From Clostridia bacterium (lineage in GTDB: Bacteria > Bacillota > Clostridia > Christensenellales > UBA1242), in assembly GCA_017478185.1 (NCBI GenBank), contig JAFVEA010000009.1:261264-325263 (forward strand): a DNA stretch of 64,000 nucleotides, given 5' to 3'. The notes under the pieces were generated by a model. It was not told where the DNA came from. It saw only the letters and a list, made by a program, of their open reading frames with translations, and searched no databases. This document shows positions 3,828 to 53,602 of the stretch, piece by piece; positions within the stretch are counted from its first letter, which is position 1, and each line of letters opens with the position of its first letter. The position numbers and the translations under genes are program-made.

Positions 3828-4094
3828 ATGGCAAGAGAACAATTTAGAGAAAGAAATTGGAAAGTCCCTAATAAAAGAGCAAAAGATTTCGTTGATGAAC
3901 TTCGCTCTAAAAATCATATGCACGGAGATAAAGAAGGCAAAAAGCTTACTGATTATGAAGCAGGATTCCGTAGTGGATATCTTTTGAACCAATCAGACCG
4001 TGCTGGACTTTACAAGTACATTCAAGCTATCGGAGCGGGAAAATCTAAATCCGAAGCAAAAAGACTTTCTAAGATTATTGGAAAGCACAGATAA
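3828..4094 (+). CDS. small basic hypothetical protein
   Basis: 88-aa ORF with AAGGAGA SD. Lys/Arg-rich, no TM segment. Confidence 0.55.
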   Translation: MAREQFRERNWKVPNKRAKDFVDELRSKNHMHGDKEGKKLTDYEAGFRSGYLLNQSDRAGLYKYIQAIGAGKSKSEAKRLSKIIGKHR

Positions 4095-27304: not shown

Positions 27305-27500
27305 CTTACCAAGGTGGTGCTCTACCCCTGAGCCACAGTAGCATACGATAAAAATATTAAATTGTGAAAGTTAGACCTAGTGGCTTACCAAGGTGGTGCT
27401 CTACCCCTGAGCCACAGTAGCATACGATAAAAATATTAAGTTGTGAAAGTTAGACCTAATGGCTTACCAAGGTGGTGCTCTACCCCTGAGCCACAGTAGC
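27305..27500 (-). repeat. three tandem 79-bp units, each containing the 5' ~38 nt of a second tRNA-Thr(GGT)-type gene truncated in the anticodon loop
   Basis: The reverse complement is GCTACTGTGGCTCAGGGGTAGAGCACCACCTTGGTAAG at 27342-27305, 27421-27384 and 27500-27463. No matching 3' half follows any copy. Confidence 0.8.
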
Positions 27501-27805
27501 ATAATAAATTATAAATTTATATTTTTATCTTAGGTCGCTTTTATATGATAATATAAAAGAATAAAAAAGTCAATTATATTTTAATTATTTAATACTTTTG
27601 AATTAATAAGTGTGAAAATTTGCGAAAAATTTTAAAAAGTTTTTATAAATAAAATACTTTTTAGTTGATATATTTCTTGTTTTTTTAATATAATCCTTCT
27701 AATGCGACTAAAAGTATGATTATGGATGTTAAAATTATATAAAACATAAAGAGATAAGTCAAGAGAAAGAAAAAAGGGCAGCGATTGCCCTTTTTTGCAT
27801 GGTCT

Positions 27806-30437: not shown

Positions 30438-30525
30438 GGACAGATGGTCGAGTGGTTTAAGGCACACGCTTGGAAAGCGTGCGATGTGAAAGCATCCGGA
30501 GGTTCGAATCCTCTTCTGTCCGCCA
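30438..30525 (+). tRNA. tRNA-Ser (anticodon GGA)
   Basis: Class II tRNA with a long variable arm, anticodon arm CACGC-TTGGAAA-GCGTG, CCA encoded. Confidence 0.85.
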
Positions 30526-30737
30526 ATAAAATTCAGCTAAGGCAAAGAGGATTCGAACCCAAGGGTTCCCACCGCAAACGATGTTTGCTTTCTGGCCGGG
30601 TGAAGCCTTTGGCGTTCACCCCGCTTTAGCTAAAACAGCCCACTGGGCTGTATTTTTAACGCAAAGCGCCTCTTCTGTCCGCCAGTAAAGTTAAGCTAAG
30701 GCGAGGAGGATTCGAACCCAAGGGTTCCCACCGCAAA
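30510..30737 (+). repeat. direct ~69-nt duplication of the tRNA-Ser 3' end plus downstream sequence
   Basis: CCTCTTCTGTCCGCCA...GCTAAGGC.A.GAGGATTCGAACCCAAGGGTTCCCACCGCAAA at 30510-30578 and 30669-30737. Confidence 0.75.
30635..30657 (+). terminator. Rho-independent terminator inside the duplicated interval
   Basis: ACAGCCC-ACT-GGGCTGT followed by ATTTTT. Confidence 0.6.
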
Positions 30738-30802
30738 TTTTGTTTATCAACAAAAATAATAATAGTATTTTTGCTTATTTTTGTTTTTAGGAGGAAATAT
30801 AA

Positions 30803-32966: not shown

Positions 32967-33221
32967 GAGATTCTCACGTCGGCTACTAAAGTGCCTCCTT
33001 AAGAATGCCTTGAGGCGAAAGCCGAAAGTTTGGTGCTGCGCTGCCCGCTTTGAACTGATTTTTAAATCGCCAATCTAGCAATGTTACACTTTTAACAAAA
33101 GCAATATGAGATTCTCACGCTTCGTGCCTCTGGCACTACGCTCAGAATGACACATCACCACTAGTCATTGCGAGCGAAGCGTGGCAATCTCTATTTTTTT
33201 CATACAATTTATAACATCACC
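32967..33221. repeat. dispersed composite palindromic repeat, copy R1
   Basis: Modules GAGATTCTCACG-hairpin-CTCAGAATGAC, GTCATTGCGAGCGAAGCGTGGCAATCTCT, AATGCCTTGAGGCGAAAGCCGAAAG, and terminal TTCATACAATTTATAACATCACC. Confidence 0.75.
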
Positions 33222-34213: not shown

Positions 34214-34307
34214 TAGTTTAAGTGTTAAAAAACAGAGAAATAGAAAGTATTTTTCTGTTTTTTTTATTTATTTTTTAACTACCCCTATTGACTCAGGTGC
34301 GGGGGAG

Positions 34308-34380
34308 TGGTATTATGACACCGATAACACAACAATTATAGAAAAAGTTGTTTCTGCTTAAAAAATGTTTAAATTTCGGG
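34308..34380 (+). pseudogene. orphan 3'-terminal fragment of an LRR-lipoprotein paralog
   Basis: A 73-nt stretch identical to 36141-36213, the last 17 codons plus stop and 3' UTR of the gene ending at 36194. Confidence 0.7.
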
Positions 34381-34559: not shown

Positions 34560-34591
34560 TTGACACTAGGGGGGGGGGGTAATGGTATAAT
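34560..34591 (+). promoter_or_regulatory. promoter with an 11-G homopolymer in the spacer (TTGACA - 20 nt - TGgTATAAT)
   Basis: TTGACACTAG(11)TAATGGTATAAT. G-run at 34569-34579. Confidence 0.6.
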
Positions 34592-34655: not shown

Positions 34656-36194
34656 ATGAACAAAACAAAACATTTAAAAACATTGTTTTTGTCTGTTGTT
34701 TTTATGGTTGTAATATTTTTTTGTGGCTTTGTTTTTTCAGCTTGTGACAACAATCCAAAAGACGACACGCAAACAATAGATAACACACAACAAACAACAG
34801 ATGATGAGCAAACAAAAGACGACACACAAACAACAGATGATGAGCAAACAGTTTACACAATAACTTTTGAAACGGATTCTGGAAGCGCTTGTGAGCAATT
34901 AAGCGTAAATAGTGGCCAGTCTTTAAATGAAGCAAATTTAAGTTTGCAAACACCAGAAAAAACTGGTTACACTTTTGCTGGGTGGTTTGTTGATAGCGAA
35001 AAAACTCAAGAATTTAATTTAAACATAAAAATAACACAAAACCAAACACTTTATGCAAAGTGGGATGTTAATCAATATACAATAACTTACATTTCAAATA
35101 TTGCAGGCGAAGAATTTACTAACACAATAACTCAAGATTATGGAACAGTTATAGATATTCCCGATTCACCTAAAGAAGGTTATATGTTTGGGGGATGGTA
35201 TGCAGATAAAAGTTTTAAACTTAGTTTAGTAAACAAAACAATGCCAGCAGACAACCTAACACTTTATGCAAATTGGGTTGATGATAACTTAGATTACATA
35301 TACAAAGATGGTTATTATCGTTATTATGAGGTTAAAGTTAATGAAACGCATCAAAATTGCACATCAGTAACAATTCCGAGCACATATATGGGGTTTCCAA
35401 TAATAGCAATATGTGATGATGCATTTAAAGATTGTTCTAGTTTAACAAGTATAACAATTCCAGATAGTGTGAGAATGATTGGTGAATCTGCATTTTTGAA
35501 CTGTAGTTCTTTAACAAGTATAGTTATCCCAAGTGATGTAAGTAAGATATGTGATGCAACCTTTGCTTATTGTAACAGCTTGACAAGCATAACCATTCCA
35601 AATAGTGTTACTAGAATTGGAAATTATGCGTTTAATGATTGCAGGGGTTTAACAAATATAACAATTCCAAGTAGTGTAACAAGTATAGACAATGATGCGT
35701 TTAGTGGTTGTAGTGATTTGAAAAGTATAACTTTTGCCGAGGGTTCTAAGCTAACAACAATTGGTCAGAGAGCTTTTGAAGTTTGCACAAGTTTAACAAG
35801 TATAACAATTCCAACTAGTGTAACAACGATAGACCGGCTTGCATTTTATGGCAGTGGCTTAGAAAGCATAACTTTTGCCGAGGGTTCTAAACTAACAACA
35901 ATTGGTCAGAGCGCTTTTGAAGCTTGCACAAGTTTGACAAGCATAACCCTTCCAGCAAGTGTAACCAGTATAGGCGATAGAGCATTTTATAATTGCTCTA
36001 ATTTAGAAAAAGTTTATTACACTGGAACAGAAACTCAAAAAGCAAACATAAATATAGATGAGCGTAACACTCCTTTAACCAATGCCACATGGTATTACTT
36101 CACAGAAAATGGAGCAGATGAAACAGCAGCTGGAAATTGGTGGTATTATGACACCGATAACACAACAATTATAGAAAAAGTTGTTTCTGCTTAA
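34656..36194 (+). CDS. surface lipoprotein with T/D/Q-rich linker, Listeria-Bacteroides (Flg_new) repeats and BspA-type LRRs
   Basis: Lipobox VFSAC. YTITFETDSG...GYTFAGWF repeats, then LTSITIP-x-SV-x-x-I-x-x-x-AF LRR units. Confidence 0.8.
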   Translation: MNKTKHLKTLFLSVVFMVVIFFCGFVFSACDNNPKDDTQTIDNTQQTTDDEQTKDDTQTTDDEQTVYTITFETDSGSACEQLSVNSGQSLNEANLSLQTPEKTGYTFAGWFVDSEKTQEFNLNIKITQNQTLYAKWDVNQYTITYISNIAGEEFTNTITQDYGTVIDIPDSPKEGYMFGGWYADKSFKLSLVNKTMPADNLTLYANWVDDNLDYIYKDGYYRYYEVKVNETHQNCTSVTIPSTYMGFPIIAICDDAFKDCSSLTSITIPDSVRMIGESAFLNCSSLTSIVIPSDVSKICDATFAYCNSLTSITIPNSVTRIGNYAFNDCRGLTNITIPSSVTSIDNDAFSGCSDLKSITFAEGSKLTTIGQRAFEVCTSLTSITIPTSVTTIDRLAFYGSGLESITFAEGSKLTTIGQSAFEACTSLTSITLPASVTSIGDRAFYNCSNLEKVYYTGTETQKANINIDERNTPLTNATWYYFTENGADETAAGNWWYYDTDNTTIIEKVVSA

Positions 36195-36275
36195 AAAATG
36201 TTTTTAAAATGAAAAGGTTTATTGCAATTTAAATAACTTTATGATATACTCTAAAAGATAAAAGGGTGTTAGATT

Positions 36276-37553: not shown

Positions 37554-37572
37554 TAAATAAAATCACAAAAAA

Positions 37573-37601
37573 AGACGTAGCAAAAAGCTACGTCTTTTTT
37601 T
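37573..37601 (+). terminator. Rho-independent terminator
   Basis: AGACGTAGC-AAAAA-GCTACGTCT followed by a T-run. Confidence 0.75.
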
Positions 37602-37729
37602 ACTGGTGTTATTTTTAGCGGAAATGTTTGTTGTTTTTGGTAGCAAAGTTATTTTTGTTCATTCTTAAGGAAGCAAGAGGCTTGTTCACCTCACACCATA
37701 CCAAGAGAAAAGATTTGTTTTTATCTTTA

Positions 37730-38060
37730 TCATTCTGAGGAGGCACGATGTGCCGACGTGAGAATCTCTTGCCGTGCGCGAGAGTCTCAAGTTTTTTATG
37801 CAAAGAGATTGCCACAGCCCTAAAGGGCTTCGCAAAGACAAAGAGAAAGCGCCAAACAGTTGAGATTGCCACGCAAGGTAAAACCTTGCTCGCAATGCCT
37901 TGAGGCGAAAGCCGAAAGCTTGGCGCTGAACCTCTCACTTTGAGCCACTTTTTTAAGCGCCAAACAGAGAATAAACCGAAGCCCTCCCAAAAACAGGCAA
38001 AGTGTCATTCTGAGCAAAACTTGTTTTGCGTGAGAATCTCTTACAGTGCGCGAGAATCAC
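37730..38060. repeat. dispersed composite palindromic repeat, copy R2 (largest)
   Basis: Two CATTCTGAG-hairpin-CGTGAGAATCTC units, two AGAGATTGCCAC-hairpin-TCGCAA(T/A)G units, and AATGCCTTGAGGCGAAAGCCGAAAG. Confidence 0.75.
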
Positions 38061-38136
38061 ATTTTTTCTGCTATCGTTTTTTATTTCATCCCCAAAAAAC
38101 TTAATAAAAAAATTTTAGAAAAGTGCTTAAAATTAT

Positions 38137-38167
38137 TTGACTAGGGGGGGGGGTATTATGTTAAAAT
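38137..38167 (+). promoter_or_regulatory. promoter with a 10-G homopolymer in the spacer (TTGACT - 19 nt - TGtTAAAAT)
   Basis: TTGACTAG(10)TATTATGTTAAAAT. G-run at 38144-38153. Confidence 0.55.
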
Positions 38168-38216
38168 AAACACGAAAGTATGAAATTGGTCATACATAAG
38201 AACGGGGGGAAATTTT

Positions 38217-39113
38217 ATGACAAAATTAAAATCTTTAAATTATTTGTGGCTTTTATTAATTATTCCAATTATGTTTTTGTTTGTTGGTTGTGGCACAGAC
38301 AACAGCAAATCACAGCTAAACCAAACAGCAACTTGCCAAACTCAAACTGAAAGTGCCTACACATCCGAAGGCGCAGGCGAGGCTTACACCGCAAAAGTAA
38401 CAACAGATGAAACAAGCGGAGAAGTTTCAAACAACTTTTCAAAAGGCTATCGCATGACAATGAAAATGAATATGCTTGGCAGTATTGAAATGAATGCTAT
38501 TTTTGTTGATAACAATATGGCAATAAAAATGAAAATGGATATGGATTTAAGTGCTTTTGGTGATTTAACATCAGATGAGGCAAGTGCTGAAGATACATCA
38601 GCAGAAATATATATGTGGAAAAAAGATAACACATTATATATGAGTTCTGAAGGAAAGGATGAAAAAGGAAACACTCAAAAAACTTCTGTAAAATACACTA
38701 TGACAGCAGAACAATTGGAAGGATTTTTAAAATCTTCTAAAGTTCGAGCTTATTCAGTTGCAGATGTTTTAGATTGTGTAAAAAACATAGATAATGAAAA
38801 TATCACAATAAAAGTAGCTGGAGAAAATAGCTTTAAAATAGAGTTTAGGGGTTTGGGTTTAGATGCATTTGATTTATTTGATCCAATGGAACAAGCGGCT
38901 GTGCCAATGGATGCTGAGCAAACTTTTGCTGCAGATATTTATGTTAACTTTAACTCAAACAAAACAATAAACTCAATAAAAGCGGTTTATAATATGACTA
39001 GTGGAGAAACAACAACAACCGTGTTTGAACTTACAATGAGTGAATATAATGGTTCAATCACATTCCCAAAAGATTCAGACTTTAGCGCAGCTGATCCTAA
39101 CACTTTGGCTTAA
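38217..39113 (+). CDS. lipoprotein, function unknown
   Basis: Signal peptide plus lipobox LFVGC. Confidence 0.75.
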   Translation: MTKLKSLNYLWLLLIIPIMFLFVGCGTDNSKSQLNQTATCQTQTESAYTSEGAGEAYTAKVTTDETSGEVSNNFSKGYRMTMKMNMLGSIEMNAIFVDNNMAIKMKMDMDLSAFGDLTSDEASAEDTSAEIYMWKKDNTLYMSSEGKDEKGNTQKTSVKYTMTAEQLEGFLKSSKVRAYSVADVLDCVKNIDNENITIKVAGENSFKIEFRGLGLDAFDLFDPMEQAAVPMDAEQTFAADIYVNFNSNKTINSIKAVYNMTSGETTTTVFELTMSEYNGSITFPKDSDFSAADPNTLA

Positions 39114-39135
39114 ACATAAAAAATAATTGGAAAAA

Positions 39136-39170
39136 CAAAAAATAGATGTAATTTTACATCTATTTTTTGT
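39136..39170. terminator. bidirectional terminator
   Basis: AATAGATGTA-ATTT-TACATCTATT flanked by A- and T-runs. Confidence 0.6.
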
Positions 39171-39648
39171 TTTTAGCAAGAAGGATTGTTCTTAAAACAA
39201 AGCTTATAACAATTGAAATTAAATATAAAACAAGCCAAAAACTGCTCCAAACGCTGGAATCATTTAGAATAGAAAATCCATTTGCAATTATTGAATAAAA
39301 AATAAAAACAAACAACAAAATTGCCAAACAACTAAAAACATATCTAGTGATTCTAAAAGCGTATTTATTTCCGTTTTTTATTTCATAAAGCGTAAAAGTT
39401 AAATCCAAAACACCAACAACAAACAAAACAGCAACAATAAAATAAATCACCCACAGCCCACCAAAAATTTTAACGAACACAGGAACAATCATTAAAATTG
39501 GTGCGGAAAAAATGTTTAGAAGATAGGCTATAAAACCGCCCGTAAAAAGTTTTGTGCACATTTGCCCCAAAAAAACAGATAATGCGCTTAAAATTGTTAA
39601 AATAGACAAAACTATTGCAAACACATTTGAAACATATTCTTTTTTCAT
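39160..39648 (-). CDS. membrane protein (about 5 TM)
   Basis: Start moved to MKKEY behind AAGGAGCA. Mostly hydrophobic helices. Confidence 0.6.
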   Translation of the reverse strand: MKKEYVSNVFAIVLSILTILSALSVFLGQMCTKLFTGGFIAYLLNIFSAPILMIVPVFVKIFGGLWVIYFIVAVLFVVGVLDLTFTLYEIKNGNKYAFRITRYVFSCLAILLFVFIFYSIIANGFSILNDSSVWSSFWLVLYLISIVISFVLRTILLAKNKK

Positions 39649-47426: not shown

Positions 47427-47545
47427 GTGGCGTTATAAATTGTATGAAATAAGTAAGATAGAGATTGCCACACTTTTCTTGCAATGCCTTGATATGGCAG
47501 CCGAAAGGCATTCTGAGGAGACACATTGTGCCGATGTGAAAATTT
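47427..47545. repeat. dispersed composite palindromic repeat, copy R4 (inverted orientation)
   Basis: GGCGTTATAAATTGTATGAAA, AGAGATTGCCAC...TTGCAATGCC and CATTCTGAGG...GATGTGAAAAT. Confidence 0.7.
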
Positions 47546-51754: not shown

Positions 51755-53602
51755 GTGCGCTATATTGGTAATAAATCAAAAGTTTTGAATGAGATTGATA
51801 ATATAATTTATAAGAAAGGACTAAACAAGAAGGGTCTTACTTTTTTTGATGCATTTACTGGTACGGCCACAGTTGCACATCATTATAAAAGTAAATATCA
51901 TTTACTTGCTAATGATAATTTATATTTCTCCTATATAATAGCAGAAGCTAAACTTAATTCTAAATCTAATATGTTTAAAAAACTTGGTTTTGATCCTTTT
52001 GATTATTTTAATAAAGTTGATACATCTGAATGTGTTGGATTTATTACCAAAAATTTTGCTCCAGTTTTGTCTGATAGAATGTATTTTAGTGATGAAAATG
52101 CTAGGTTTATTGATTTTATTAGACAAACAATAAATGATTGGTATACAGCTGATAAAATTACAGAAAACGAAAAATACTTTTTAATAGCTTCATTGATTGA
52201 ATCTGTTTCAAAAGTTGCAAATGTTGCTGGGGTTTATGGTTCATTTCTAAAGACATGGGATCCTAGAGCTGTAAAAAGAATGATTTATATACCTATTGAT
52301 ACAGAGCCATATGTTGATGATTTGGCAGAAATATACAATGATGATATACTAAATGTTATTAAAAAAGTTAAAGGTGATATTTTATACTTAGACCCACCAT
52401 ATACAAAAAATCAATATTCATCTCAGTATCACTTATTAGAAACTATTGCTTTATATGATAATCCAATTCTTAAAGGTAAAACTGGGGCAAGAGATATGCG
52501 TATGTATACCTCTGACTTTTCTCGTGAAGGTAATGTTCATATAGCTTTTGAAGAATTGATTGCAAATGCTAATTTTAAATATATAATATTAAGTTATAGT
52601 TCAGATGGAATAATGTCTAAAGAGTATATTGAAAGTATATTTAAAAGGTATGGAAAAAAAGAAACTTTCGAGTTTGTTAAATTTTCGTACAGACAATACA
52701 AAAATAGCAAAGCGGAAGATAAAACTGATCATTGTGAATATTTGTTTTATATAGAAAAAGATTTTAATCCTAAATATGCTTCTCCACTAAATTTTATTGG
52801 AGGGAAACATGATATGATAGATTTTTTGAAAAGTTATATGCCTAAGAAAATTGATACTTTTTATGATTTATTTGCGGGCGGGTTTAATGTTGGAATAAAT
52901 GTGAGTGCTGATAAAATTGTTTATAATGATATTAATTTTAAAGTTAGAGAACTATTAGAATATATTACAAACGCAGATATGAAAGATTTTTATAAATATA
53001 TTTCATCAACAATAGTTAAATTTGGATTAAAAAATGAAGATAAAGAATCATATATTAAATTGAGAGATAAATATAATAACACTCCAATTGACAAAAGAGA
53101 TTGTAGGGATTTATTCCTATTAATTATGTATGGATTTCAACAGCAAATACGATTCAATAGTAAATTAGATTATAATAACCCTGTTGGACAAGCAGGATTT
53201 AATGATAAGGTACTAGATAAATTAATATCCTTTGCTAGGATTACAAAGCAGAAAAAAGTGTTTTATTATTCAGAAGATTATGAACGCTTTTTGGATTATA
53301 TAACCAAAGAAGATTTTGTTTACATTGATCCACCATATTTAATAACTCTTGGCAGTTATAATGACGGCAAACGCGGTTTTAATGGTTGGAACGAAAAAGA
53401 AGAATTGAGATTGCTAAAATTTTTAGATTGTCTAAATAAAAGACATATAAAATTTATGTTATCAAATGTTTTAACACATAAAGACAAAACTAATAAAATT
53501 CTTAAAGAATGGATAGAAAACAATAATTTCACAATAATTAAATATGATAGGAAAGCTCGTGGCAATAGAGCGGAAATAATTGTTTTAAATTATGAGGTGT
53601 AA
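51755..53602 (+). CDS. tandem two-domain Dam-like (D12-class) N6-adenine DNA methyltransferase
   Basis: RYIGNKSK plus FDAFTGT and ILYLDPPY in the N-half. LNFIGGKHD, FYDLFAGG and FVYIDPPY in the C-half. GTG start. Confidence 0.8.
   Translation: MRYIGNKSKVLNEIDNIIYKKGLNKKGLTFFDAFTGTATVAHHYKSKYHLLANDNLYFSYIIAEAKLNSKSNMFKKLGFDPFDYFNKVDTSECVGFITKNFAPVLSDRMYFSDENARFIDFIRQTINDWYTADKITENEKYFLIASLIESVSKVANVAGVYGSFLKTWDPRAVKRMIYIPIDTEPYVDDLAEIYNDDILNVIKKVKGDILYLDPPYTKNQYSSQYHLLETIALYDNPILKGKTGARDMRMYTSDFSREGNVHIAFEELIANANFKYIILSYSSDGIMSKEYIESIFKRYGKKETFEFVKFSYRQYKNSKAEDKTDHCEYLFYIEKDFNPKYASPLNFIGGKHDMIDFLKSYMPKKIDTFYDLFAGGFNVGINVSADKIVYNDINFKVRELLEYITNADMKDFYKYISSTIVKFGLKNEDKESYIKLRDKYNNTPIDKRDCRDLFLLIMYGFQQQIRFNSKLDYNNPVGQAGFNDKVLDKLISFARITKQKKVFYYSEDYERFLDYITKEDFVYIDPPYLITLGSYNDGKRGFNGWNEKEELRLLKFLDCLNKRHIKFMLSNVLTHKDKTNKILKEWIENNNFTIIKYDRKARGNRAEIIVLNYEV

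Follow-up and report, generated by a model that had tools for sequence, protein, structure and literature searches.

The question raised by this locus is whether a run of ten G residues in the promoter at positions 38137-38167 makes the lipoprotein gene behind it phase-variable. The window, i.e., the whole 64-kb stretch of DNA that was analyzed (30% GC), comes from an uncultured member of the Clostridia. In the initial annotation the site was described as TTGACT, TA, G(10) and TGtTAAAAT with a 19-nt spacer, located about 50 nt upstream of the lipobox protein encoded at 38217-39113, and was paired with a promoter of the same architecture at 34560-34591. We refer to these as site 2 and site 1, respectively. 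The features of site 2 and its gene are as follows.

38137..38142, + strand: -35 hexamer TTGACT, read directly; its counterpart in the orthologous loci L167 and L168 is TTGACC
38144..38153, + strand: poly-G tract G10 inside the 19-nt spacer 38143-38161, the presumed slippage-prone element
38159..38167, + strand: extended -10 element TGtTAAAAT with a TATG '-16' motif (TAAAAT at 38162-38167, T at 38161)
38178..38195, + strand: 5′UTR hairpin/palindrome GTATGA-N6-TCATAC, with 6-7 pairs in the fold alignment against orthologues
38204..38209, + strand: Shine-Dalgarno sequence G6, 7 nt before the ATG, kept in three orthologues
38217..39113, + strand: lipoprotein gene, 298 aa, with signal peptide and LFVG|C lipobox, of unknown family
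39131..39174, both strands: terminator-like, bidirectional hairpin closing the monocistronic unit

Direct reading of the sequence confirmed the promoter elements and the 19-nt spacer, with one correction: the T of the proposed 'TA' is the last T of the -35 hexamer. A single A (38143) separates TTGACT from G10, while TATTA (38154-38158) lies between G10 and the TG dinucleotide (38159-60), giving the full string TTGACT A GGGGGGGGGG TATTA TG T TAAAAT. The G10 run (38144-53), placed between the -35 and -10 elements, exceeds the length from which a homopolymer can slip (about 8 nt). The distance to the gene was also right, as the ATG at 38217 lies 49 nt after the -10 and the protein carries the LFVG|C lipobox. 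A TATTAT immediately following the tract was considered as an alternative -10 element and rejected: it would leave a spacer of 11 nt, and the alignment of orthologues favours TAAAAT.

The lipoprotein gene can be regarded as a unit of its own, because a hairpin terminator follows it at 39131-39174. A Pfam search with the 298-aa protein returned no family, and no fold could be assigned, given an AF2 model of low confidence (pLDDT 56) and Foldseek matches with TM ≤0.36. Only 3 homologues were found among 5.8 billion proteins, all of them in rumen or gut metagenomes, and a search for RNA runs containing the gene turned up none. In the leader, the hairpin at 38178-38195 differs from its counterparts in the orthologues by one compensatory exchange between a G:C and an A:U pair, and it could serve as an mRNA stabiliser or an operator. 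Directly 5′ of the G6 ribosome-binding site, position 38203 is C in the window, whereas the four other assemblies and two Logan runs all have A there.

To what extent these hexamers are the promoter of the gene can be judged from the orthologues. Two of the three homologues could be read together with their upstream DNA (L167 and L168; 52-56% identity). Both carry TTGACC, a 17-nt AT-rich spacer (TAAAAAATTTTAAATGT) and TGtTAAACT without any poly-G, and they share the leader hairpin, the G6 ribosome-binding site and the N-terminus/gene start with the window. In place of the window G10 they have TAAAAAATTTTAA. Conservation of the orthologous hexamers at a distance of 17 nt indicates that TTGACT and TAAAAT are promoter elements and that the native spacing is 17 nt. 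By this alignment the poly-G at site 2 is a lineage-specific replacement that adds 2 nt, and a G8 tract would restore the 17-nt spacing. The same spacing is seen in the canonical promoters of tRNA genes in the window (TTGACA-17-TAAAAT and TTGATT-17-TATAAT), and a gene for an rpoD-type sigma factor is located 16 kb past the window. A metagenome scan for further alleles of site 2 returned none; its sole match was an unrelated promoter, TTGACTA-N8-TATTATGTTAAAAT, from another organism (TTGACTA-AATCAATA-TATTATGTTAAAAT), whose hexamers and flanks are those of site 2 but whose ordinary 8-nt filler gives the canonical spacing of 17 nt.

The conserved hairpin in the leader would also suit a different arrangement, in which the true promoter lies further upstream, the tract is transcribed and the G run acts within the 5′UTR on RNA stability, translation or attenuation. 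We consider this very unlikely. A promoter scan, which was limited to 16-18-nt spacers and recovered neither poly-G site, detected no alternative promoter on the + strand between the helicase terminator (37565-37603) and the ATG at 38217; from that terminator to the tract there is no promoter-like site on this strand, and the upstream region consists of a dispersed repeat. Moreover, the hexamers flanking the tract are near-consensus and conserved at 17 nt in the orthologues.

The second promoter of the pair and its gene have the following layout.

34560..34591, + strand: sister promoter (site 1), TTGACA (34560-65), CTA, G11 (34569-79), TAATGG, TATAAT (34586-91)
34656..36194, + strand: lipoprotein gene, 512 aa, with FSA|C lipobox, Listeria-Bacteroides repeats and BspA-type LRRs

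Site 1 has a 20-nt spacer and a TGg extended -10. The view that the two sites have the same architecture therefore holds for the design but not for the sequence, as site 1 carries G11, CTA and a 20-nt spacer against G10 and 19 nt at site 2, and the flanks of the two sites are without homology. The start of the 512-aa protein is ATG 34656 in public gene calls, and its gene sits 3.6 kb upstream of the site 2 gene. Pfam domains Flg_new (1.3e-25) and LRR_5 (4.4e-64) were detected in it. Relatives of this protein reach at most 54% identity, too distant for a promoter comparison; one of 80 (L197) has G8 in a promoter spacer. Both downstream products carry a signal peptide and a lipobox, which marks them as surface-exposed, and the sister protein has adhesin-type BspA-LRR and Flg_new domains in addition. 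A perfect 64-nt direct repeat is present at 34307-34370, upstream of the poly-G promoter of the BspA gene, and at 36140-36203, where it covers the 3′ end and stop of the same gene. The two copies thus bracket the site 1 promoter and gene as a unit of 1833 nt, possibly a remnant of a tandem array or of a cassette replacement, judging from this arrangement. Two public scaffolds end in the region of the repeat.

We examined how far the pairing of poly-G promoters with lipoprotein genes departs from chance. Sites 1 and 2 contain the only G runs of at least 7 nt in the 64-kb window, in which C runs of at least 6 nt are absent, and no further G or C run of at least 7 nt occurs in about 17 kb beyond both window ends of the same genome (about 81 kb in total). 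The pattern TTGAC-N0-2-TA-G8 has two matches in the window vs. 0.00 expected from 100 shuffles. A lipobox scan of all window ORFs of at least 80 aa identified only two lipoprotein genes, and both lie behind the poly-G tracts. The argument that two such promoters in front of lipoproteins are not a chance occurrence is borne out by these counts.

As runs of G are prone to error and several contigs break here, we also weighed a sequencing or assembly artefact, such as poly-G produced by two-colour Illumina chemistry. It has hardly any probability in our view. The G10 and G11 runs are internal, with good flanks on both sides, in different samples and with different assemblers at 12-20x, and the same design is found in metagenome-assembled genomes (MAGs) from many unrelated studies. 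For site 2 in particular, three different assemblers gave the same G10 in four further public assemblies, which argues against an accident of assembly.

Tract lengths were read from assembled contigs (public assemblies and Logan contigs). At site 1 the tract is G11 in the window and in L005, G12 in a contig of X1 from a co-existing variant strain with 5 SNPs, and G10 in an otherwise identical contig of X3, an allele represented by one contig of 4.7x. The site 1 tract interrupts the contigs of X2 and of the major X1 strain, and at the site 2 tract those of X2 and X3 stop on either side. Since G homopolymers are hard for Illumina sequencing, the breaks and the 4.7x contig weigh little as evidence; contig breaks at homopolymers also come from Illumina coverage and error problems. 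At site 2, all five spanning assemblies (the window and L001-L004) show G10, and these five derive from one study and apparently from one strain. The proposed variability in poly-G length is thus seen at the sister tract (G10/G11/G12), but not at the site 2 tract (G10 in 5/5 assemblies).

The initial annotation had suggested scanning for more TTGAC-N0-2-TA-G8+ sites. In 185,579 species genomes we found 79 loci matching TTGAC-N0-2-TA-G8+-N0-5-TAWT, many of them before surface proteins; the scan covered one genome per species and required G8 or more, so that G7 alleles were not returnable. About two thirds of the 79 loci come from a handful of uncultured gut MAGs. The hosts include rabbit 'Bacilli' bins (up to about 20 sites per MAG), a 'Tenericutes' bin and several Clostridia, among them the cultured Eubacterium sp. 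AF22-9. ORFs begin 50-170 nt downstream of the sites. Of the 51 downstream ORFs, 47 have a hydrophobic anchor or signal at the N-terminus, compared with 35% of all ORFs in the same loci, and these 47 open with a basic stretch followed by a hydrophobic anchor, a lipobox or a prepilin motif. Paralogous promoters that are otherwise identical differ in having G9 or G10. We found no published account of such promoters in gut Clostridia or Bacilli MAGs among the open-access papers searched.

Several further observations were made on these loci. Rabbit-gut 'Bacilli' MAGs (L088-L166, e.g., L107, L139, and L146) contain tandem arrays of genes for signal-anchored proteins of 500-770 aa, in which each gene has its own TTGACTTA-G9/10-TAWTATTA-TATAAT promoter. 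In one copy (L146 at 96) the tract is interrupted (GGGGGGAGG), possibly making it a 'locked' allele, and some of the genes preceded by poly-G promoters are prepilin-like (L106, L125). A Hadza-gut Clostridia MAG (L012) has, near nrdD at 4054-4066, a G13 run adjoining TTGACA in reverse complement; read from the opposite strand, poly-C stands beside a -35-like hexamer, and the run may be another spacer tract of a different design.

Spacer lengths in these MAGs are unusually uniform. Measured to the distal TATAAT, the spacer equals the number of G residues plus 10; 11 promoters have 19 nt and 32 have 20 nt. An allele of ON length (17-18 nt) was seen neither among the approximately 50 poly-G promoters of other MAGs nor in the window, and no G8 member of these promoter families was observed in the scan, which required G8 or more. 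A genome-wide control kept the flanks constant (TTGACTTA...TAWTATTA-TATAAT); in it, promoters with ordinary filler had a 17-nt spacer in 49/108 cases and 16-18 nt in 71/108, while with a pure-G filler it was 19 or 20 nt in 9/9. The lack of G8 members could come from promoters that are OFF by default, from a mutational equilibrium near G9-G10, or from the geometry of the G tract.

The last of these would imply that 19-20 nt is the working state, because G-tract DNA is A-like with a shorter rise or because a factor binds to it, and that the tract tunes or conditions promoter strength instead of being a switch that is ON at 17 nt and OFF when longer. The almost exclusive occurrence of 19 nt (G9) and 20 nt (G10) in unrelated MAGs, with none at 17-18 nt, points in this direction, and the constant 'G+10' suggests a preferred state. 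Nevertheless, we regard such a geometry as improbable. Poly-G tracts of Campylobacter have a mutational equilibrium near G9-G10, and the main scan, with its threshold of G8 or more, could not have returned G7 alleles. The orthologous promoter, in turn, has an ordinary 17-nt spacer, and the poly-G spacers of porA and tp0126 obey the 17-nt rule (PMC7864442).

The invariance of the site 2 G10 in five assemblies and the lack of ON-length alleles anywhere would also agree with a promoter that is fixed or decayed. The G tract would then be a hypermutable passenger with no selected role, and the gene behind the over-long spacer would be permanently weak or silent, or transcribed from the extended -10 only, an element that alone could sustain basal transcription. 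This is unlikely, in our estimate. Two independent promoters of the same design stand before the only two lipoprotein genes in 64 kb of 30%-GC DNA, and neither ORF is disrupted. Other MAGs show perfect hexamers preserved on both sides of the tract, and behind dozens of copies the gene for a surface protein is intact. Intact ORFs and kept hexamers argue against silencing, since a silenced gene would not conserve them.

A slippage-prone expression switch is the most likely reading of site 2, which would make it a new example of a known mechanism. We think it probable that the site is a slipped-strand contingency switch in a promoter spacer, of the porA / tp0126 / vlp type and assembled in a weak or OFF state. 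A sigma-A (sigma-70-type) promoter would hold the G10 homopolymer in the spacer between TTGACT and the TG-extended TGtTAAAAT, and replication slippage would shift this spacer in 1-nt steps. G8 would give the optimal 17 nt, G9 would give 18 nt, and the assembled G10, at 19 nt, would be weak or OFF; a spacer of 17 nt would be reached when site 2 loses 2 G or site 1 loses 3 G. As slippage would change the spacer length, the population would come to contain cells that differ in the level of the surface lipoprotein (a phase or 'volume' switch). Site 1 (G11, 20 nt), before the BspA-type lipoprotein gene, would be a switch with the same design but built independently. Promoters with a TG-extended -10 are less dependent on the -35 and on spacing. 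Both promoters are of this kind, and the effect may therefore be graded ('volume control') rather than ON/OFF. The model presupposes reversible slippage at the site 2 tract at high frequency (for promoters of this type, about 1e-2 to 1e-5 per generation) and transcription that depends on tract length and peaks near a 17-nt spacer, to which the 17 nt of the orthologues and of the promoters with the same flanks point indirectly. Its adaptive role would presumably be escape from host immunity or phage, or niche adaptation. As for the claim of a dedicated phase-variation mechanism, it is backed by what was observed directly: the anatomy of a promoter with a poly-G spacer, its assignment by orthology, the non-random placement, the recurrence of the design and the polymorphism of the sister tract. 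The switching and its effect on expression are the parts that we infer.

Comparable systems have been described in distant bacteria. In Neisseria meningitidis porA, the -35 and -10 elements are separated by a poly-G tract, and the level of expression depends on whether the spacer measures 17 nt (PMC7864442). Common to both cases is a sigma-70-type promoter that drives a surface-protein gene and has homopolymeric G in its spacer; the differences are that porA encodes an outer-membrane porin of a proteobacterial pathogen, that its usual tract is at or just below the optimum while the window tracts are 2-3 nt above it, and that its switching has been demonstrated, whereas at site 2 it is deduced. 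In Treponema pallidum, poly-G separates the -35 and -10 of tp0126, for which 17 nt is optimal, and the tprE/G/J promoters are permissive only at 8 G or fewer, most cells carrying longer, poorly active lengths (PMC7864442). Like sites 1 and 2, tp0126 and tprE/G/J/L have poly-G (7-12 nt) in promoters of surface proteins, and both the 17 nt reached with G8 and the over-long assembled state of site 2 match this system. T. pallidum is, however, a spirochaete, and at 53% GC its genome makes G runs less unlikely. Several of its tpr tracts overlap the -10 while the window tracts are in the spacer, and its length heterogeneity and reporter effects have been measured. Finally, the Mycoplasma lipoprotein genes vlp, maa2 and vmm are switched ON and OFF by indels in repeats of the -35/-10 spacer (PMC2268961). 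M. hyorhinis vlp, M. arthritidis maa2 and M. mycoides vmm resemble the present case in belonging to low-GC, host-associated, Firmicutes-derived bacteria and in controlling lipoprotein genes; vlp is a multigene family (PMC2268961), and the families of the gut 'Bacilli/Tenericutes' MAGs look analogous. In contrast, the Mycoplasma tracts are poly-A or TA repeats, the proteins are unrelated, and the organism studied here belongs to the Clostridia and uses the standard genetic code, which fits since long ORFs run throughout the window.

A phasevarion is a regulon driven by a phase-variable DNA methyltransferase, whose mod or hsdS gene bears simple sequence repeats or is invertible. The term had been applied to the set of poly-G promoters, and here it is a misnomer. 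The methyltransferase ORFs of the window (11072-15087 and 51755-53602) contain no homopolymer of at least 7 nt and no multi-copy short repeat within the window, and the likeness is limited to several genes varying in phase, whereas each gene here has its own cis switch. 'Phasome' or contingency loci would be the fitting terms.

To our knowledge, multi-locus repeat-driven phase variation has been recognized almost exclusively in pathogens (Neisseria, Haemophilus, Campylobacter, Helicobacter, Treponema, and Mycoplasma). According to a 2025 review, this apparent restriction is an open question and possibly a result of database bias (PMC11868660). The wider pattern in gut Firmicutes is the more interesting lead and bears on this question (PMC11868660). 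Tentatively, and with less than even confidence, we suggest a widespread, undescribed class of poly-G spacers (TTGAC-N1-3-G9-12-N6-8-TATAAT, 19-21 nt) that would serve uncultured low-GC gut Firmicutes as their main contingency system acting at many loci. As part of the same tentative reading, its hosts would be Clostridia and RF39-like Bacilli/'Tenericutes'; in these commensals, large families of surface proteins, lipoproteins and pilins would be under its control, possibly with a default-OFF state that is unusual, or with a geometry specific to the G tract. If these tracts are indeed switches, gut commensals vary their surface by the cheap means that pathogens employ, and consensus metagenome assemblies would hide this diversity and tend to break contigs at these sites.

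All assemblies and runs with the locus are ruminant gut metagenomes. NrdD of the window showed at best 86% identity to uncultured Clostridia MAGs from reindeer and cattle and about 70% to Christensenellales. The 298-aa lipoprotein had no relative in the 185,579 species genomes, which indicates that the species is absent from that collection.

Directly upstream of site 2, at 37615-38063, the intergenic DNA contains GC-rich, modular dispersed repeats, which were also found at 32970-33190 (inverted) and 47472-47507; examples of the modules are GTCATTCTGAG..hairpin..CGTGAGAATCTC and AGAGATTGCCAC..GCTCGCAATG. An Rfam search of the region upstream of site 2 returned no family and only sub-threshold chance matches around the terminator. 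Contigs fork at these repeats, and a Logan word depth of 140-330 vs. about 20 in the flanks points to some 10-15 copies per genome. Invertible promoters are flanked by inverted repeats and come with a recombinase; the only recombinase gene in the window, for a tyrosine recombinase (216-1598), is 36 kb from site 2. Partial tRNA copies are present as a 79-nt unit repeated 2.5 times beside tRNA-Thr (27305-27503) and as a 77-nt repeat beside tRNA-Ser (30510-30586 and 30669-30745). By their sequence they look like att scars of integrated elements, and in their surroundings lie the tyrosine recombinase gene (216-1598) and methyltransferase genes (11072-15087, and a Dam-like one at 51755-53602).
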